Virus record (IMG/VR): IMGVR_UViG_3300046791_000454 | Coordinates: 1-64,000 of that record | Direction: 5' to 3' (one strand) | DNA from: a virus | Length of the DNA stretch: 64,000 nt | Part shown: positions 8,017 to 24,640 of the stretch, piece by piece | Layout of the letters: each line of letters begins with the position of its first letter | Position numbering within the stretch: position 1 is the first letter of the stretch | The notes under the pieces: model-generated | The model's input: only the letters and a program-made list of their open reading frames with translations | Databases searched by the model: none | Told to the model about the DNA's origin: nothing | Program-made: the position numbers and the translations under genes

Positions 8017-8304
8017 TCAGGTCCCCGTCTTCGGCCGAGCCGGCTCGGGCCTAGTCGCCGTGTCGCGCTCTTCCCTCGTCTCCCAGGCCGACGCGGGCAC
8101 CTTGCCGCGCGACCACCGCTCGATGGCACCTCGCAGCGGATGCCGCGGTCTCCCGTGGCCGTTGAGCCACTCAGACATCGTTGCGTTGCTCACGCCGATC
8201 GCCCTGGCGGCATCGAGGGCCGTGAAGTCGAGCTCCTCGATGAACTTCTGGAGCAACTGCCGGCCCAGGTCGGGGTGCGGCACTGGCGATTCGGTCCTCG
8301 GCAT
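8017..8304 (-). CDS. Cro-like XRE HTH regulator
   Basis: ALDAARAIGVSNATMSEWLNG..RP...IERWSRGKV; divergent from the repressor. Confidence 0.8.
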   Translation of the reverse strand: MPRTESPVPHPDLGRQLLQKFIEELDFTALDAARAIGVSNATMSEWLNGHGRPRHPLRGAIERWSRGKVPASAWETREERDTATRPEPARPKTGT

Positions 8305-8397
8305 GTCGGTGAACCTAACCGAATGCGGCGGGGCGCGCAAGCCTGGACGCAAAAAAAAGTTAGGTCGCCTAAATTTGTGGGCTTCTACGGTGGTCCC
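8305..8397. promoter_or_regulatory. divergent cI/cro promoter-operator region
   Basis: minus TTGCGC-17-TAGGTT 7 nt before the cro ATG; plus TACGGT 6 nt before the cI ATG; palindrome TTAGGTCGCCTAA 8360-8372. Confidence 0.7.
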
Positions 8398-8976
8398 ATG
8401 CCGAAGCCGCCGGAGCTGACCATGGGCCGATACCTCCAGTTTTTGGCGGTGGCCTGGATGCGCACGAACCGCGCAACGGCGAAGGAGCTCGCGGCCGCTG
8501 TTGGCGTCACGGGGGCCCAGATCCACGACGTCATCAGCTTCGCGCGGGGCGCTGGGCCCAAGACGGTGCGTGGCTTCGCGGCACTCCGTGGCGTCGAGGA
8601 GTGGGAGCTCCGACGTGATGCGGCCGCATGGGAGGCGGAGAACCCCGTGCCGTTAGACGGCCCGGTCGATCTCGAAAACCTCGGCGCTTCCTTTCGAGAC
8701 GCGGTGGAGCGCAACCCGGGCCGCTGGTCTCATGACGAGATCAAAACAGCTGTGGCGGCGCGTGGGTCCGACGGCTTCGCCAGCATGACGCCCGAGGGCA
8801 TCGTCGACTTCATCGATAGCGTGGCGCAGGCGAATCGACGGGCGAACCGCGAGGCTCAGCTCATCAAGACGAGCCGCCCTCATCGCGTCCTCTCACTGCC
8901 ACCAAAGCCTGAGGAGCGCGACGAAGTTGCCGAGCGCCGAGCGCTACTCGCGAAGAAAAAGCGGAGGACGAGGTAG
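8398..8976 (+). CDS. CI-like repressor (N-terminal XRE HTH, no S24 peptidase domain seen)
   Basis: TAKELAAAVGVTGAQIHDV; divergent position. Confidence 0.7.
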   Translation: MPKPPELTMGRYLQFLAVAWMRTNRATAKELAAAVGVTGAQIHDVISFARGAGPKTVRGFAALRGVEEWELRRDAAAWEAENPVPLDGPVDLENLGASFRDAVERNPGRWSHDEIKTAVAARGSDGFASMTPEGIVDFIDSVAQANRRANREAQLIKTSRPHRVLSLPPKPEERDEVAERRALLAKKKRRTR

Positions 8977-9185: not shown

Positions 9186-9869
9186 CTACTGCCAGACGCC
9201 GCCCGTGCCGTTGCAGCCGTACGTGTCGCACGGCGCGATGGTGCACGGCGTCGCGTTCGAGATGAAGAGCGTGAAGACTCCGCCGAGTCCTGGTGCCTGC
9301 TGTTGCAGGACCGCGAACGAGCCTTCGGTGATGGTCTCGCACCCGCCCGTGGGCGAATCGCAAGACAGAGGCTGAGGCGAGCCCAGCGGCGCGATGCTTG
9401 GGATCGCGCCACCGTATGCGAACGTCCCGCCGCACGTCGTGCCAGCGGGGAACGCGACCGGGAGCGCCCAAAGCGTAGCGCTAGACGTGTCGCACGCGCA
9501 GCGCGGGTCGCGGAGCGCCGTCTGCGGCGCCTTGACCTTAGTCGTTCCGAAGCTGAGCATCAGGACCTTCGAATCGTTGCAGACGTCGGCGCACACCGTG
9601 TCGACGGGGCCGCACGTCGGGTCGCAGTTGATGATCGTGTCGGCGTCGCCGGGCTGTAGACACGCGGCATCCGGGCACCCCGTCCCGCCGCCGGTGCTAC
9701 TCGATGACGAGGAGCTCACGCTGGACGTGGCGCCTCCCGTTCCAGCCGCCGACGAGCTCGCGCTGTCCGTCGTGCTCCCGCTACCTCCTGAACCACCGGC
9801 ACCCTCAAGACCCTGCGCCGCCGAGCACGCCACCGCCGACACTGCAACCGCTATCGCAATAATTCTCAC
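9186..9869 (-). CDS. Cys-rich lipoprotein (moron)
   Basis: MRIIAIAVAVSAVAC lipobox, Gly/Ser linker, Cys-rich domain. Confidence 0.75.
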   Translation of the reverse strand: MRIIAIAVAVSAVACSAAQGLEGAGGSGGSGSTTDSASSSAAGTGGATSSVSSSSSSSTGGGTGCPDAACLQPGDADTIINCDPTCGPVDTVCADVCNDSKVLMLSFGTTKVKAPQTALRDPRCACDTSSATLWALPVAFPAGTTCGGTFAYGGAIPSIAPLGSPQPLSCDSPTGGCETITEGSFAVLQQQAPGLGGVFTLFISNATPCTIAPCDTYGCNGTGGVWQ

Positions 9870-10005
9870 GTCGTCATGGTAAGCCGACGAACGGCATGGC
9901 GCTACGCTGCGCGCGTGAGCAGCGGCGGACTTCGACCTAGCTGTAACGCACCTGGTCCGCCACGATCCATCTTCCGCCGCGGGCAAAGCAGAGCCATCCT
10001 GCGAC

Positions 10006-10638
10006 ATGGATCTGGGGGATCTTGAGGCGCTCGCAGTAGAGGCCATTGAAGCGGTAAACGAGGACCCGGAACGTCCGCCGTCGGCGTTCCGGCTCGCTCG
10101 CGCCCACCTCGGCGCTGGCTCCGTCGACCGGCCGCGCATGATGGTCGGGCCTCCGGCCGTCACGTTCGAAGTGGCGGGGCAACAGCGGATCGCGATCAAG
10201 GCGTCCGTGCCGCTCGAGTACGCGCACTTCTGCTGCGCGCACGAGCTCGGCCACGTGCTCCTCGCGCGCGCCGGCTTCCGCGGCCCGCTCGACGAGGAAG
10301 AGGTCTGCGCCAATTACCTTGGCGCTGCGCTGCTCATGCCGCGGCCCGCCGTGCGCTCGTTCTACCGGGCCGAGGGCCTTTCTCCGCGCCGTCTGGCGAA
10401 GGTCATCGTCTGCACGCAGACGGCGGCAGCGCTCCGCTTCGGCGAGGTGCTCATGTCGCCGCTCGCCGTCGTCGCGCCGGCCAGCGTGCGCGTGCGTGGC
10501 CCCGAGGCGTGGGTCTGGCCTGACGAGCGGACGATCCGCCGCTGGGCATCGGGACGGCCCGGGCCCGGCGTCGCGAAGATCCGGCTGACCGACCAGAAGC
10601 GCGTCGCGCTCGTCGGCAGCGACAACGACGCGGCGTAG
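10006..10638 (+). CDS. ImmA/IrrE family metallopeptidase
   Basis: FCCAHELGHVL...EEVCANYLGAALLMPR. Confidence 0.9.
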   Translation: MDLGDLEALAVEAIEAVNEDPERPPSAFRLARAHLGAGSVDRPRMMVGPPAVTFEVAGQQRIAIKASVPLEYAHFCCAHELGHVLLARAGFRGPLDEEEVCANYLGAALLMPRPAVRSFYRAEGLSPRRLAKVIVCTQTAAALRFGEVLMSPLAVVAPASVRVRGPEAWVWPDERTIRRWASGRPGPGVAKIRLTDQKRVALVGSDNDAA

Positions 10639-20273: not shown

Positions 20274-20405
20274 AGACGAACTGACAAGAACGGCAGCAGT
20301 TGGGCCGGCCCACTACGGGCAGCGCGAGCCTCGGCGGAAGAGAGGCGACCTGTTGCCCCACGCCCGTGTTAGGCGCCGGGGGGAAGGGCCCCAGCGGCGC
20401 AGGAC

Positions 20406-21239
20406 TCAGACAGTGGCGAGACCGTCGCGCCGGCCTTCAGCGCCCCCGTTCGTCGGCTTGATGTTCTTGCCGCCCGCAACCTCGTTCAGCGTGCGGAGCA
20501 GGTCGAGCCGCAGGAACTGCAAGTGCAGGTTGCCGTTCCGGAAGCACTTGAATCGGAAGTAGCGCGTCTCTCCGCGGCCCTTGTCGCCGCTGGCCTTGAT
20601 CGCGTCGGAAAGCTCGCCATGATAGCTCTTGGCCACCGTGCCGCGACCGTCGAGCATGCTGAACACGTTGTCGAGCGCCACAAACTCAGCCTCGCGCCCG
20701 TAGCGGACGTGGTAGCCGGGCGACCACGCGCGCTCGACGCGGTGCTCCAGCACGACCTTCGGCCCGATCTCGGTTCGGCTGTTGGTCTTGTACGTGTCGC
20801 GCCATGGGCGCAGGAAGCCGAAGACTTCACGCACGGCCTCGGCCATCATGACCGGCGCCGCCTCGAGGTAGAACTCCGCGAAGTCCGCCACGTTCTCGAC
20901 CGTGAGCGGCGGCAGGTCTCCGCGCTCCAGCCGCTCGTCCAGTTCCTTCGCGCGCTTGACGGACAGCATGCGGCGAATTTCGAGGCGCTCGGCAACCGCG
21001 CCCCACGCGTTACGGGCCATGCGCTCGACGGCCGCATCGGCGTCCCAGTCGCAACCGGTCCGGTGCCTGCTCGCCTCGACGGAGATGTGCCCTCGGCGCG
21101 AGCTGTCGCCGTAGAGCGCGCCGAGACGCTCCTCGACGGCGAGGACGATGGCGAACGCGCGGCGGACGTCGCGCTCTGCTTCCTGGAAGGCCGCCACAAG
21201 CTCGTGGACGGCGGCGTGACGGGCGAGGTCGGTGCTCAC
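20406..21239 (-). CDS. DUF4942 domain protein
   Basis: YKTNS...YFRFKCFRNGNLHLQFLRLDLLRTLN. Confidence 0.8.
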   Translation of the reverse strand: MSTDLARHAAVHELVAAFQEAERDVRRAFAIVLAVEERLGALYGDSSRRGHISVEASRHRTGCDWDADAAVERMARNAWGAVAERLEIRRMLSVKRAKELDERLERGDLPPLTVENVADFAEFYLEAAPVMMAEAVREVFGFLRPWRDTYKTNSRTEIGPKVVLEHRVERAWSPGYHVRYGREAEFVALDNVFSMLDGRGTVAKSYHGELSDAIKASGDKGRGETRYFRFKCFRNGNLHLQFLRLDLLRTLNEVAGGKNIKPTNGGAEGRRDGLATV

Positions 21240-21445
21240 GAGTGCACCCGCTCCGCTTCCTCGGCCAACGCGGCCGCTTGGCGCAGAATCGACGCCACCT
21301 CGCGCCACGCGTTGTATCGACGAGGCATGTCGCTATCCAAGTCCGCCTGGACCTCGACGGACGCGAGCGCGGTGTCAATGAGCAGTTGCGGGCCCACCTC
21401 GGTCGCCAGGTTCAGGAACGCGGTCAGCTTCTCGTCGGGCAGCAT
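21236..21445 (-). CDS. hypothetical protein
   Basis: GGAGG SD. Confidence 0.6.
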   Translation of the reverse strand: MLPDEKLTAFLNLATEVGPQLLIDTALASVEVQADLDSDMPRRYNAWREVASILRQAAALAEEAERVHS

Positions 21446-21463
21446 GGGGAACCTCCAACGCCC

Positions 21464-21497
21464 AAAGCCCCGGCCCCTTTCGGGGTGCGGGGCCGAG
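21464..21497 (-). terminator. GAAA-loop hairpin, copy 1
   Basis: CTCGGCCCCGCACCCCGAAAGGGGCCGGGGCTTT on the minus strand. Confidence 0.6.
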
Positions 21498-21511
21498 CGA
21501 TCCGGCTGCGT

Positions 21512-22042
21512 TCAGGCAATCGCCTTGCGGACCGTGGCGAGCGCCTTGGCACGGCCCTTCGCCCCGGCGTTCTTCGCGGACCACTCGGCCCAACCGAGGA
21601 GCGTCTCACCCTTCTGCGCCATGAAGGCGTTCGGGTGGGGCTGCGTGGCAAGCTTTGCGCGCGCCGTCTCGTCGGCAAGAAGCGCGGCGAGGTCGGCGAG
21701 CTTCGCGGACGCGCGGGCCATGGTGGCCACCTTGCGGCGCTTGGCGAGGTCGCGGTCCACGCGGGCGACGAGGGCGGCGTCGACCTTGCGGATGCAGTCG
21801 GAGCCGACGTGGAAGCGCTTGCCGTCCGCGCTCTCGACGTTGCAGAGGACGATGATGGCCATGCCGCAGTATTCGCAGGTGCCGCCGGGCTGCGTGACGA
21901 CGCAGAGGCCGCCGGGAAGGCGCTCCGTCACGACCATGCCGTACTCGCGGTCCTGCTGACCGAGGCCGATGTAGCGGAAGGGGGCCTTGCCGAGGCCGGC
22001 GAGTTCGAAGGGGTGGACTGCGGAGGGGGTCGTCGTGTTCAT
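21512..22042 (-). CDS. hypothetical Zn-binding protein
   Basis: HPFELAGLGKAPF...CEYCG...VGSDCIRK. Confidence 0.75.
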   Translation of the reverse strand: MNTTTPSAVHPFELAGLGKAPFRYIGLGQQDREYGMVVTERLPGGLCVVTQPGGTCEYCGMAIIVLCNVESADGKRFHVGSDCIRKVDAALVARVDRDLAKRRKVATMARASAKLADLAALLADETARAKLATQPHPNAFMAQKGETLLGWAEWSAKNAGAKGRAKALATVRKAIA

Positions 22043-22053
22043 GCCTTCCCTCT

Positions 22054-22069
22054 AGCGAGGACCATGCCA
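22054..22069 (-). promoter_or_regulatory. putative sigma54 (-24/-12) promoter, leftward
   Basis: TGGCATGGTCCTCGCT = GG-N10-GC; ATG about 13 nt after the C. Confidence 0.6.
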
Positions 22070-22073
22070 CGAT

Positions 22074-22528
22074 ATGACGCACGTGGCATCGCGGCGCGCC
22101 CCATGCTACGGAGCGGAACCCATGACCAAGAGCCGCCCGCCGCCCATTCCCGACCAGATTCGCACCGCACGCACCGCTGCGCACCTTTCCCAGGCTCAGC
22201 TTGCAGAAAGCACGGGCCTTCAGCAGTCGGCCATTGCCCGCTATGAGACCGGCGAACGCGATCCGAACCTGCGAACGCTCCGGATTCTGGCCGGAGCACT
22301 GAACACGGTGTGGCTCGTTTACCCGTAGATTTCGCGCGCTACGCATCCAAGTCATAGCCCATGACGCCGGTGTCATCGTGGCCCATGCGTCGGTAAACAT
22401 AGACTAATATGCGCTTTCTGAGGCACGCTGTATCAACTCCGATGCCGCCGGTGTCATACTGAACGGTCCTCCACACGGCGGCGGCGGGGCCTCTAATGCC
22501 GGTAATCAGCCAATGTCTCCAGCGGCAT
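22074..22528. promoter_or_regulatory. four 16-bp palindromes ATGnCnC-NN-GnGnCAT (22074, 22361, 22442, 22513)
   Basis: ATGACGCACGTGGCAT, ATGACGCCGGTGTCAT, ATGCCGCCGGTGTCAT, ATGTCTCCAGCGGCAT. Confidence 0.75.
22122..22328 (+). CDS. XRE family HTH regulator
   Basis: IRTARTAAHLSQAQLAESTGLQQSAIARYETGERDP. Confidence 0.9.
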   Translation: MTKSRPPPIPDQIRTARTAAHLSQAQLAESTGLQQSAIARYETGERDPNLRTLRILAGALNTVWLVYP

Positions 22529-22532
22529 TGGC

Positions 22533-22548
22533 TGGCACACCCCGTGCA
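22533..22548 (+). promoter_or_regulatory. putative sigma54 promoter, rightward
   Basis: TGGCACACCCCGTGCA = GG-N10-GC, near consensus. Confidence 0.7.
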
Positions 22549-22561
22549 ATGCCTCTCTGAC

Positions 22562-22732
22562 ATGAAGACGCTGACGAAGCAGATGAGCCTGGTGGGGATG
22601 ACGGTTCGCTCGACGACCTGCGACATCGCTGGCACCATCGAGTACGTGACCAAGGACGGCTGGGCCGGCATCCGGGACGCCTCGGGCCGCCTGGACGAGG
22701 AGAAGCTCAGCCGACTGGAGCAGGTGACCTGA
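22562..22732 (+). CDS. 56-aa hypothetical protein
   Basis: first ORF after the promoter, high GC3. Confidence 0.6.
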   Translation: MKTLTKQMSLVGMTVRSTTCDIAGTIEYVTKDGWAGIRDASGRLDEEKLSRLEQVT

Positions 22733-22737
22733 GGGCC

Positions 22738-22772
22738 CCCGGCCCGGTTCCCGAAAAGGGGGCCGGGCCTTT
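22738..22772 (+). terminator. GAAA-loop hairpin, copy 2
   Basis: CCCGGCCCGGTTCCCGAAAAGGGGGCCGGGCCTTT. Confidence 0.6.
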
Positions 22773-22789
22773 CGAGTCAGGAGACCAAG

Positions 22790-22981
22790 ATGACCTTACC
22801 GAAGCTCCACCACCTCTTCCGCCGCCCCGAGCAGTGCCTCCCGGCTAACAGCAATTCGGTGCCGGCGTTCTGCTCGGTCGAGTCGATCCCCGGCTGGCTC
22901 TACACCCAGGCGGCTGCCCGCGTCAGCGCGCGCCGCGCCCGCTTCTCGTCCGTGGCCTTCAACGCGAAGGTGTCATCGTGA
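22790..22981 (+). CDS. hypothetical protein
   Basis: AGGAG SD. Confidence 0.55.
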   Translation: MTLPKLHHLFRRPEQCLPANSNSVPAFCSVESIPGWLYTQAAARVSARRARFSSVAFNAKVSS

Positions 22982-23124
22982 GCCGCGCGGCCCGCATCGC
23001 CGTGGTCGTGCTGATTGAGGCCGAGCTTGCGGCGGCAGACGACATGCCGGAAGAAGACTACGCCGCGGCACGGGCGTTGCTAAAGGAATTGGAAGAGACG
23101 AGCGAGACGGAGGAAGAGCGGTGA
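22978..23124 (+). CDS. 48-aa acidic peptide
   Basis: GTGA overlaps at both ends. Confidence 0.5.
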   Translation: MSRAARIAVVVLIEAELAAADDMPEEDYAAARALLKELEETSETEEER

Positions 23125-23303
23125 ACCCCGACACAATGCTACGGATGACCGATGACGGCGACACGTTCGAGTGCACGTGGGCGAGCTTCGCGGAAGCGAA
23201 CGCGGATACGCCGAGCGTGGTTGCCGAGGTTGCAGCGCTGGCAGTCGGTGAGCGCGTGACGCTGGCCGGAGGCGGACTTGTGGAAGTGGAGCGCGTGTCG
23301 TGA
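23121..23303 (+). CDS. hypothetical protein
   Basis: overlap-coupled. Confidence 0.55.
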   Translation: MNPDTMLRMTDDGDTFECTWASFAEANADTPSVVAEVAALAVGERVTLAGGGLVEVERVS

Positions 23304-23752
23304 GCTACTGGAACGGTTTTAAGAACGCGCGTGTGAAGACGCCGGTCGCGACCTGGACTCGCTGGGACGTCTCTTGGTCCCCCTGGGGCCGCAACCCCGT
23401 CCGAGGCACGAACTACGTCCAGCTTGAGACGCTAGACGCGGTTGTCATCGGCCTCTACGACGTGAACGCGGATGGCGTACGCGTCGGGCGTCGACCTCGG
23501 CAGGTCGAGGTCTACGCCAAGACCAAGCGGAGTCCGAAGTGGCTCGGCTATGACACCAGCGCGCGACTCGCGGCGCTTTTCTACAACGTGCTTGCGCGTG
23601 AGGCAGGCTCGGACGACTACGGGCGGGTCGTCCGCTGGGGCGTCGGCATTGCCCCGAAGCACTACGACGACAGCAAGGCCATTCTCGCCTTCATCGCCAA
23701 GTTGGACGCCGCCGAGCGAGCGGCCAAGGAGCAGACCCGTGAAGCCGCTTAG
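23300..23752 (+). CDS. hypothetical protein
   Basis: overlap-coupled. Confidence 0.6.
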   Translation: MSYWNGFKNARVKTPVATWTRWDVSWSPWGRNPVRGTNYVQLETLDAVVIGLYDVNADGVRVGRRPRQVEVYAKTKRSPKWLGYDTSARLAALFYNVLAREAGSDDYGRVVRWGVGIAPKHYDDSKAILAFIAKLDAAERAAKEQTREAA

Positions 23753-23939
23753 CATCGAGTACACCTTCCACGGCGGCCCCAACGAGGACGTGCTCGTGGA
23801 CCGCAAGCGGTGCCGCTCGGACGCCGCTGCCCGCCAGCACGCCGCGAAGCTGGCCGACCGCCTTGGCGGCTACATCTGCGTCAGTCGCAACGGGCGCCGC
23901 ATCGTGAGCGTGAACGAGAACTGGAGCGAGCCGTCATGA
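23739..23939 (+). CDS. hypothetical protein
   Basis: AGGAG SD. Confidence 0.55.
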   Translation: MKPLSIEYTFHGGPNEDVLVDRKRCRSDAAARQHAAKLADRLGGYICVSRNGRRIVSVNENWSEPS

Positions 23940-24280
23940 CCAAGACCAACCGAATCCCCGCCCGCCTCGACGCGGACCGCGCCGCGACGCCGAGGGCGCG
24001 CCTCATCCAGCGCCAACAGGTCCGCGACGGAGACACCATCTCGGCGACGAACGCGACGCACTACGAGGCGGAGGACGGGAGCCGGGTAGCGCTGGCGGAT
24101 GCTCTCGAGGCGGCCCGCTCAAGGCTCGCCTACGCCGACGACGCCTGGCCTGGGTCTCCGAGGGAGGTGCGCGCGGCACAGGCAGACGTGGACCGGCTGG
24201 AGGCCGAAGTGGAGGCGTTGCGCAAAGCGGCGCTGCCCGAGCCCCGCGACGGCGTGGACGACGAGCCCGGAGACGTCTGA
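23936..24280 (+). CDS. hypothetical protein
   Basis: ATGA coupling. Confidence 0.55.
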   Translation: MTKTNRIPARLDADRAATPRARLIQRQQVRDGDTISATNATHYEAEDGSRVALADALEAARSRLAYADDAWPGSPREVRAAQADVDRLEAEVEALRKAALPEPRDGVDDEPGDV

Positions 24281-24291
24281 GCCAAGGCGCG

Positions 24292-24330
24292 AAAAGAGAA
24301 GAGCCCGTCTCCGGGCGTGGAGACGGGCTC
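24292..24330 (-). terminator. intrinsic terminator between convergent operons
   Basis: 12-bp perfect stem GAGCCCGTCTCC/GGAGACGGGCTC followed by TTCTCTTTT on the minus strand. Confidence 0.8.
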
Positions 24331-24352
24331 GAAGGTGAGACGGCGGGCGCGG

Positions 24353-24640
24353 CTAGAACGACGTTGCAGTCACCTGAAACGTGGCCTCGTCGACGGCAAC
24401 AACGGTGCCCGACGCGACCCACTTGACGCGCCACGTTCCCGCCGCACTCGGTGTGAGGTCGTAGTGGTACGCACCGGTGCTGTCCTTGACCATGGCGCTG
24501 GACCCGTAGGCCCACGTCGAGACGATCCCGTTGGGCGCCTTGGCTTGGAGCTCGACCGTCGTCGGGTCCGCTACGCCAACCGAGTCCGCGAACGTGCACG
24601 AGGAGCGGACACGCGATCCGAGCTTGACGCTTAGGGACAT
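24353..24640 (-). CDS. small Ig-like virion accessory protein
   Basis: DPTTVEL..PNG...KDSTGAYHYD...GTWRVKW. Confidence 0.65.
   Translation of the reverse strand: MSLSVKLGSRVRSSCTFADSVGVADPTTVELQAKAPNGIVSTWAYGSSAMVKDSTGAYHYDLTPSAAGTWRVKWVASGTVVAVDEATFQVTATSF

Follow-up and report, generated by a model that had tools for sequence, protein, structure and literature searches.

Which form of RNA polymerase starts transcription of the two gene blocks that diverge from a small repressor-like gene in an uncultured soil phage, and what holds it in check? The locus lies at positions 20406–24330 of the stretch of DNA analysed here (the window), which covers the initial 64 kb of the IMG/VR virus record IMGVR_UViG_3300046791_000454, itself 81,496 bp long (hereafter G000). 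The module consists of a leftward block of three genes and a rightward block of seven genes around a gene for a 68-aa XRE-family protein. A preliminary description, made from the sequence alone, had claimed a mirror-symmetric sigma-54-type layout here, and all of the elements that it listed were found in their places. As judged from the sequence, the best explanation is a pair of divergent, leaderless promoters of the sigma-54 type that are operated by the XRE protein through four palindromes, and we give this reading a probability of roughly 0.55. The features on which it depends are as follows.

21512–22042, minus strand: A1, first gene of the left arm, 176 aa (112 metagenome homologues)
22054–22069, minus strand: P_left, sigma-54-type box TGGCATGGTCCTCGCT (pattern match; rank 2 in a position weight matrix scan, 14.6 bits)
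22074–22089: O1, 16-bp palindrome ATGACGCACGTGGCAT (repeat finder and motif search)
22122–22328, plus strand: XRE-family helix–turn–helix gene, 68 aa (HTH_3 at 2.1e-14, above the Pfam cut-off)
22361–22376: O2, palindrome ATGACGCCGGTGTCAT (repeat finder and motif search)
22442–22457: O3, palindrome ATGCCGCCGGTGTCAT (repeat finder and motif search)
22513–22528: O4, palindrome ATGTCTCCAGCGGCAT (repeat finder, I3 and I12, and motif search)
22533–22548, plus strand: P_right, sigma-54-type box TGGCACACCCCGTGCA (pattern match; rank 1 in the same scan, 18.4 bits)
22562–22732, plus strand: B1, first gene of the right arm, 56 aa (homologues of 58–60 aa starting at about the same Met)

According to the available text of PMC4842269, sigma-54 promoters carry GG and GC doublets at −24 and −12 from the transcription start, and the available text of PMC3844500 states that sigma-54 requires an activated enhancer-binding protein. 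In the left arm, a TGGCA-N8-GC match (TGGCATGGTCCTCGC) was located at 22069–22055 on the minus strand, which places the −12 C at 22055, 13 nt before the ATG of A1 (22042). In the right arm, the corresponding match (TGGCACACCCCGTGC) occupies 22533–22547 on the plus strand, with the −12 C at 22547, 15 nt before the ATG of B1 (22562). The GG and GC doublets are exactly 10 nt apart at both boxes, and each box scores 6 of the 8 flanking positions of the extended consensus TGGCACG-N4-TTGCW. Both arms show the claimed order of palindrome, 4 nt, TGGCA-N8-GC and ATG, as exactly 4 nt separate O1 and O4 from the TGGCA in their respective arms; the mirror symmetry holds for this order of elements, but no sequence is shared between the arms beyond the boxes. 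The start codons themselves were checked against homologues: the ATG at 22042 is backed by the N-termini of 34 aligned A1 homologues, and the N-termini of B1 homologues led us to prefer 22562 to an in-frame upstream ATG at 22496. Both distances, 13 and 15 nt, agree with a predicted start approximately 12 nt past the −12 C, which would leave 1–3 nt before the ATG. We then scanned G000 (~163,000 positions) with a position weight matrix trained only on 86 ATG-proximal sites of three other phages (G001, G004 and G005, described below), the sites of G000 being left out. P_right ranked first and P_left second. Thus the part of the preliminary claim that concerns the boxes stood, since they are the best matches to their class in the phage with the spacing exact, and their membership of the sigma-54-type class is well supported by comparison; sigma-54 itself is a candidate reader. 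A third ATG-proximal box, at 218 on the minus strand, was rejected because it lies inside an open reading frame (ORF). A weak GG-N10-GC box (CGGCGCGCCCCATGCT; CGGCGC-N5-ATGCT) at 22092–22107, 16 nt before the ATG of the XRE gene and 2 nt from O1, with a GGAG between box and ATG, was also rejected as a promoter candidate, its matrix rank being only 22.

The same box was found at a fixed distance from start codons in other phages. Among 73 distinct regions upstream of A1 homologues, TGGCAC-N5-(G/T)TGC(A/T) preceded the ATG in two, L034 (15 nt) and L046 (13 nt), and the L046 box (TGGCACGGTCCTTGCT) agrees with the left box of the window at 14 of 16 positions. L034 is carried by G001, a complete phage of 198,045 bp with direct terminal repeats (also loci L118–L127). 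Here, TGGCAC-N6-TGC gave 58 matches compared with 5 for the reversed control (68 if C or T was allowed at the sixth position), and 31 of the 58 had an ATG exactly 14 or 15 nt past the −12 C, against a chance expectation of 2.7%. Viral contigs were scanned with the G001 consensus, which yielded G004 and G005. In G004, 15 matches were counted compared with 1 in the control; they share a single strand and mostly have the ATG at 17 nt. G005 gave 16 against 0, with ATGs at 14–15 nt. When the offset was analysed among GG-N10-GC sites, 33 TGGCAC boxes of G001 had an ATG at 13–15 nt compared with 5–7 at other offsets; the corresponding values were 12 at 16–18 nt against 0–2 elsewhere for G004, and 9 against 0 for G005. 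An ORF of at least 40 aa followed such ATGs in 47/52 (G001), 20/21 (G004) and 12/13 (G005) cases, whereas the fraction for random ATGs was 0.48–0.61. The preliminary description had suggested looking for the layout in related phages, and its promoter part is indeed there, as a box at a fixed 13–17 nt before the ATGs of real ORFs.

Several further observations concern these phages. The boxes of G004 (L169–L172) lie at ~39.3–43.3 kb and 32.1–36.2 kb on the minus strand, often 200–300 bp apart, so that the array comprises many small genes with one promoter each; a DUF4942 gene stands just downstream of it. In G001, a repeated element of ~100 nt containing TTCACCA-N6-CAAAATCGACGCGCAAAC is found ~110–170 nt upstream of at least nine boxes; it might act as an enhancer or as a second promoter, or else represent a mobile repeat. 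A perfect 8/8 box (TGGCACGATGCTTGCT) is present at ~45296 in G003 (L088 / L183), with an ATG 13 nt past the C and an ORF of 34 aa only. The early promoters of the Streptomyces phage phiC31 were considered as −24/−12 look-alikes and rejected, because their common motif (CCGGGTTGCCGACTCCCTTAC) differs from the box.

The distribution of the box bears on who reads it. The signature itself, an invariant GG-N10-GC spacing with TGGCAC and TGCA flanks, is that of sigma-54. The reader could nevertheless be an unrecognised phage factor of this lineage, either sigma-like or redirecting RNA polymerase, in which case the likeness to −24/−12 promoters would be convergent. Such a factor would fit the kinship of G000, G001 and G004, which share portal, capsid, baseplate and replication genes as well as DUF4942 at 24–46% identity and are thus distant kin, with the DUF4942 gene in the left arm here and beside the array in G004. 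It would also fit the lack of an encoded activator, given that ~60 promoters of G001 would depend on one. However, G005 uses the box, yet at E 1e-5 none of its proteins has a counterpart in G001 or G004; its overlap with G000 is limited to a TerL-like protein, and that with G006 to four proteins. G006 also uses the box and likewise has no protein in common with G001 or G004. The use of the box by G005 in this setting favours a host-encoded reader. DUF4942 was tried as a common cofactor of the box and rejected: it is absent from G003, G005 and G006, and so marks kinship rather than a cofactor. In addition, no sigma-70-family region 2 was found in G000. Together with the match of spacing and flanks to sigma-54, this makes a lineage-specific phage factor an unlikely reader. 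Profile searches of the 81.5-kb record with PF00158, PF04552, TIGR02395 and PF04542 found none of these, and the PF00158 search extends the earlier claim that no AAA+ activator is encoded, which holds for the window and for the whole record.

We next considered the palindromes. The 16-bp motif ATGnCnCnnGnGnCAT, written from the four copies themselves, has four exact matches in the window, all clustered within 455 bp and none elsewhere. With one mismatch allowed there were nine matches compared with 2.38 expected, a number reached in 0 of 100 shuffles, and a repeat finder picked up the same four copies independently (D2, D3, I2 and I3). The three strongest copies are mutually identical at 13–15 of 16 positions; O3 and the reverse complement of O4 agree at 13/16. 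The half-site consensus is ATG(A/C)C(G/A)C. An additional half-site, ATGCCAC (22064–22070), is the left −24 box itself and forms an 8+10+8 inverted repeat (I15) with the right half of O1, and O4 lies within a 9+10+9 inverted repeat (22507–22534) that extends 2 nt into the right −24 box. The features of an XRE-type repressor are present, namely an HTH_3 domain and related palindromes beside its own gene and at both promoters. By sequence, the 68-aa HTH_3 protein is the obvious candidate for binding the surrounding palindromes, and it is plausible that the protein and the four clustered sites form a gate. In L034 (2560–2675), palindromes with a GTGGCA half-site (GTGGCA-N3-TGCCAC, GTGGCAGAnCGCCAC) were observed between divergent sigma-54-type boxes; like the operator half-site of the window, this one is similar to the −24 box.

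The position of the palindromes also admits two other explanations. The centres of O1 and O4 (22081.5 and 22520.5) are 39.5 and 41.5 bp before the ATGs, so they might be class-II-type activator sites for the XRE protein, in the geometry by which CI at OR2 serves PRM and its leaderless cI message in lambda. The boxes would then be partly a by-product, as the half-site ATGCCAC includes TGGCA on the opposite strand and the box statistics within G000 alone are weak (see below). Moreover, a sigma-70-type −35/−10 pair, with the −10 element ending 6–7 nt before the ATG, was found in 7 of the 73 distinct A1-homologue upstream regions, and leaderless sigma-70 expression is therefore common in the A1 family. 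On the other hand, neither ATG has a −10-like hexamer at the proper distance, TGCAAT ending 11 nt before the right one, and a scan called no sigma-70-like site in 20300–24400, a weak point since it calls only two in the entire 81 kb. The window boxes are the top two G000 matches to a matrix trained on other phages, and L046 has a near-identical box at the same distance but no palindrome. Activation by XRE at sigma-70 promoters thus appears quite improbable.

Alternatively, the promoters may be of the sigma-54 type with the palindromes serving as sites for a host enhancer-binding protein, the XRE protein acting elsewhere. O3 and O2 lie at about −105 and −185 from the predicted right start, within what is the usual enhancer range; palindromes of 16–17 bp are typical of such activators, and the GTGGCA palindromes of L034 stand upstream of boxes. 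O1 and O4, however, at about −38, are too near for looping by an activator ring, the palindromes cluster around the XRE gene as operators of an autoregulated repressor do, and O1 is the only palindrome near the left promoter. We regard this account as doubtful for the set of four, although O2 and O3 could be either auxiliary operators or host-activator enhancer sites.

Under the preferred reading, that of sigma-54-type promoters operated by XRE, the module would work as follows. Two outward-facing transcription units would each start from a promoter of the −24 GG/−12 GC class, so near the first ATG that the mRNA would have no leader or one of 1–3 nt. Host sigma-54 holoenzyme would sit on the boxes as a closed complex, and firing would need an ATP-driven activator, one that is not recognisably encoded by the phage. 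A host activator, as put forward in the preliminary description, would follow from the general requirement of sigma-54 for such a protein. The likeliest ligand of the four 16-bp palindromes is a dimer of the 68-aa XRE protein. Because two of these cover about −46 to −31 of each promoter and a half-site coincides with the left −24 box, bound XRE would be expected to hinder the holoenzyme or its contact with the activator; the distal palindromes O3 and O2 might add cooperativity or looping from their places near −105 and −185 of the right promoter. Past the first gene of each arm, a GC-rich hairpin with a GAAA-type loop and a short U run may attenuate read-through, and the first gene product would therefore be made in excess over those of the distal genes. 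The two hairpins are:

21467–21494, minus strand: left hairpin, GC-rich interrupted stem, GAAA loop, then UUU (fold)
22741–22769, plus strand: right hairpin, 12-bp GC stem, GAAAA loop, then UUUCG (−34.5 kcal/mol, z −2.2)

They are alike in sequence, and of the four occurrences of their loop word in the window (0–1 mismatch) two are these hairpins. From sequence and fold they look like weak terminators or attenuators. Compared with boxB, whose role they might conceivably share, they have GAAAA and GAAA loops but stems of ~12 bp, and neither a boxA nor an arginine-rich N-terminus was noticed in the arm proteins, for which no dedicated search was made. Two sub-threshold Rfam matches were taken as chance.

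A number of observations weigh against this reading. Within the record itself the boxes are not conspicuous: the window shows no enrichment of TGGCA-N8-GC (18 matches where 12.5 would be expected, a number equalled or exceeded in 9 of 100 shuffles), and 13 sites in the whole record score at least 6/8 against the strict consensus. If G or T is allowed at −15, the number of sites scoring at least 6 rises to 25, of which three have an ATG 12–18 nt away, where ~2.3 are expected. In the matrix scan, the 18.4 and 14.6 bits of the window boxes compare with a training median of 21.3, and the third-ranking site, inside the portal gene, scores 14.3 bits, 0.3 bits below P_left. Because the boxes are weak within the record alone, the case rests on their position and on the comparison with other phages. 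The TGGCAT of the left box doubles as an operator half-site, and the match could therefore come partly from the operator. To our knowledge, no known sigma-54 regulator usually has its palindrome only 4 nt away from the −24 box. Neither rpoN nor an AAA+ activator (PF00158) was found in G000, G001, G002 or G003, the reading presupposes a host that has sigma-54, and the distant kinship of G000, G001 and G004 means that a shared phage factor could still serve these three. No public RNA run contains the stretch, the one run that does being of DNA, and the sigma-54 reading draws its support from comparison. With respect to attenuation, the left hairpin (whole 81-nt stretch) folded no better than shuffles (z −0.4), and neither hairpin satisfied the U-tract rule of the terminator scan (at least five T in eight), with just UUU after each stem.

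A more far-reaching version of the preferred reading would be that a lineage of soil phages uses host sigma-54 for messages starting at the ATG, without a recognisable enhancer-binding protein, and relies on a new phage activator or bypass factor or on a co-opted host activator; in the present phage, an XRE protein whose half-site mimics the −24 box would make of this a repressor-operated switch. We consider this extended version speculative and rather doubtful.

What the two units express is less readily deduced. The remaining elements of the module are:

20406–21239, minus strand: A3, third gene of the left arm, 277 aa, DUF4942 (Pfam PF13708 at 9.4e-34)
21236–21445, minus strand: A2, 69-aa gene (ORF list)
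22790–22981, 22978–23124, 23121–23303, 23300–23752, 23739–23939 and 23936–24280, plus strand: B2–B7, six small genes (ORF list)
24301–24330: terminal hairpin between the right arm and converging minus-strand genes (terminator-like call, minus strand)

Nine of the ten arm genes have no significant family match, the remaining one being the DUF4942 gene A3, whose GTG start overlaps the stop codon of A2 and whose homologues in the kin phages G001 and G004 are 41–44% identical. A2 matched no family in Pfam, PHROGs, PADLOC or NCBIfam. B1 and B2–B7 matched no protein family either, and a search of the arm genes and XRE with PADLOC and NCBIfam returned only generic helix–turn–helix matches, for XRE. 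Since the eight genes other than A1 and A3 match nothing significant, the label 'effector' that the preliminary description gave to the arm genes is a guess. A1 combines a conserved Cys/His N-terminal part (zinc-ribbon-like; C56, C59 and C83 are invariant) with a helical C-terminal part. Its predicted structure (predicted local distance difference test score, pLDDT, 89) had no Foldseek match at E 0.001 or better, and the best VIA-align match (Z 6.1) covered the helical half only and was uninformative. Viral contigs contained 113 A1 matches; the family is widespread in phages (80 viral loci, L001–L080), has no Pfam entry, and its members are often the first gene behind a promoter abutting the ATG. 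The XRE gene has a GGAG 8 nt upstream of its ATG. None of the ten tested neighbours divergent from A1 homologues carried a Pfam domain, and the pairing of XRE with A1 is thus not conserved. An exact-peptide search of viral contigs found no close relatives of A1 or XRE, and tblastn of the other ten module proteins against 87 loci gave two weak XRE matches only. For B1, a relative that is 84% identical (P0114) was found on a 2,815-bp Logan contig; the residues upstream of it would allow for conservation of TGGCAC...GTGCA, spaced as in the window. In the rest of the right arm, B2–B7 overlap or abut one another and B2 is preceded by a GGAG.

The record that carries the module is linear, ~81% complete and ~67% G+C. 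It encodes a Mu-type portal, a Mu-like protease/scaffold, Baseplate_J and a GH25 endolysin with PG_binding_1, a content that identifies a tailed phage, as well as an RNA ligase, a DnaB helicase, a DNA methylase and an SNF2 helicase. Searches of G000 found no tRNA gene, tyrosine integrase or rve transposase. The only public run containing the module stretch is one from soil-metagenome DNA, perhaps the run from which the record came; none of the public RNA runs searched contains it, and no DNA relative of 20406–24330 was found among 50,697 phage records. The portal had matches in 27 cultured-phage records, all below 60% identity (23–26% for those listed), and the TerL-like protein had one match, in an uncultured virus. 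When 401 Myxococcota genomes were searched with the portal, the best matches were of 27–29% identity, in 7 of the 401; a myxobacterial host, at which the preliminary description hinted, is conjectural. The box-plus-ATG pattern was present in 156/401 of these genomes, with at most 6 per genome, but Myxococcota was the sole phylum scanned and the count is therefore uninformative on the host. The seven contigs of metagenome-assembled genomes with A1 homologues were labelled Bdellovibrionales, Alphaproteobacteria, Polyangiaceae, Phycisphaerae, Planctomycetales, Aquaspirillum and Pirellulaceae.

Another divergent regulatory region was observed in the window at ~8017–8976. Its leftward gene (8017–8304) encodes a 95-aa protein with a weak, sub-threshold HTH_3 match, and its rightward partner a 192-aa protein of unassigned function; between them lies an inverted repeat, AACCTAAC...GTTAGGT, beside an A8 run. 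A Peptidase_M78 (ImmA/IrrE-like) gene follows downstream, at 10138–10638. These are the sole candidates seen for the CI/Cro switch of which the preliminary description took the module to be independent, and both that switch and the independence are conjectural. A Cys-rich ORF at 9186–9877 on the minus strand shows, by eye, an apparent lipoprotein-type signal (a hydrophobic stretch and then a Cys) and Gly/Ser/Thr-rich linkers.

How does the module compare with known systems? Bacterial sigma-54 (RpoN) promoters of the −24/−12 type work with enhancer-binding proteins, as in glnAp2 with NtrC and nifH with NifA, and are silent until an ATP-driven activator acts. The window promoters share with them the GG and GC doublets 10 nt apart, the TGGCA and GC(A/T) flanks, the lack of a −35/−10 pair, and the palindromes at about −105 and −185 from the predicted right start. 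They differ in that the ATG stands 13–15 nt past the −12 C, which would leave no leader or Shine–Dalgarno sequence for the first gene, and in that a palindrome lies 4 nt from the −24 box with no activator gene nearby. Phage genes placed behind sigma-54 promoters would have their timing handed to a host signal, or would have brought along an unrecognised opening mechanism. The lambda immunity region, with its OR and OL operators, the leaderless cI message from PRM, and the pL-N-tL1 and pR-cro-tR1 units, is alike in its divergent units, its repeated palindromic operators for a small helix–turn–helix protein, a leaderless first message (in the module, a predicted one) and a hairpin past the first gene of each arm. 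It is unlike the module in promoter type; here the regulator gene lies between the arms, with 517 bp between the starts, no N-like protein or boxA was noticed in the window (no dedicated search was made), and the record has no integrase.

A further likeness is to G001, G004 and G005, which have the same box, a fixed short distance to the ATG and small uncharacterised first genes. Whereas those phages carry 15–60 copies, the present phage has two, in one module, with operator-like palindromes abutting them and the XRE gene between. The fixed distance of 13–17 nt from −12 box to ATG in several phages would imply leaderless sigma-54 messages. In the Pseudomonas phage YuA, the sigma-54-like promoter P015 was mapped by ONT-cappable-seq (available text of PMC10914365), and it is the only published phage sigma-54-like promoter that our literature search found. 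As far as that text goes, YuA likewise has a sigma-54-type promoter without a phage-encoded sigma-54; it has one mapped promoter, whereas the window has a divergent pair, predicted from sequence, with putative operators and with first genes that would be leaderless. Our search of the main texts of papers found no paper on phage sigma-54-type promoters abutting start codons. Sigma-54-type promoters at the head of gene blocks appear to be a means, uncommon yet met with repeatedly, by which phages couple genes to a host activator, and what seems new here is the arrangement of leaderless, operator-abutted promoters of this type divergently around an XRE gene. With two promoters, four operators and one small regulator within ~520 bp, the module is compact and testable, and it is well suited to the study of how a repressor bound immediately before the −24 box may control a sigma-54 promoter.

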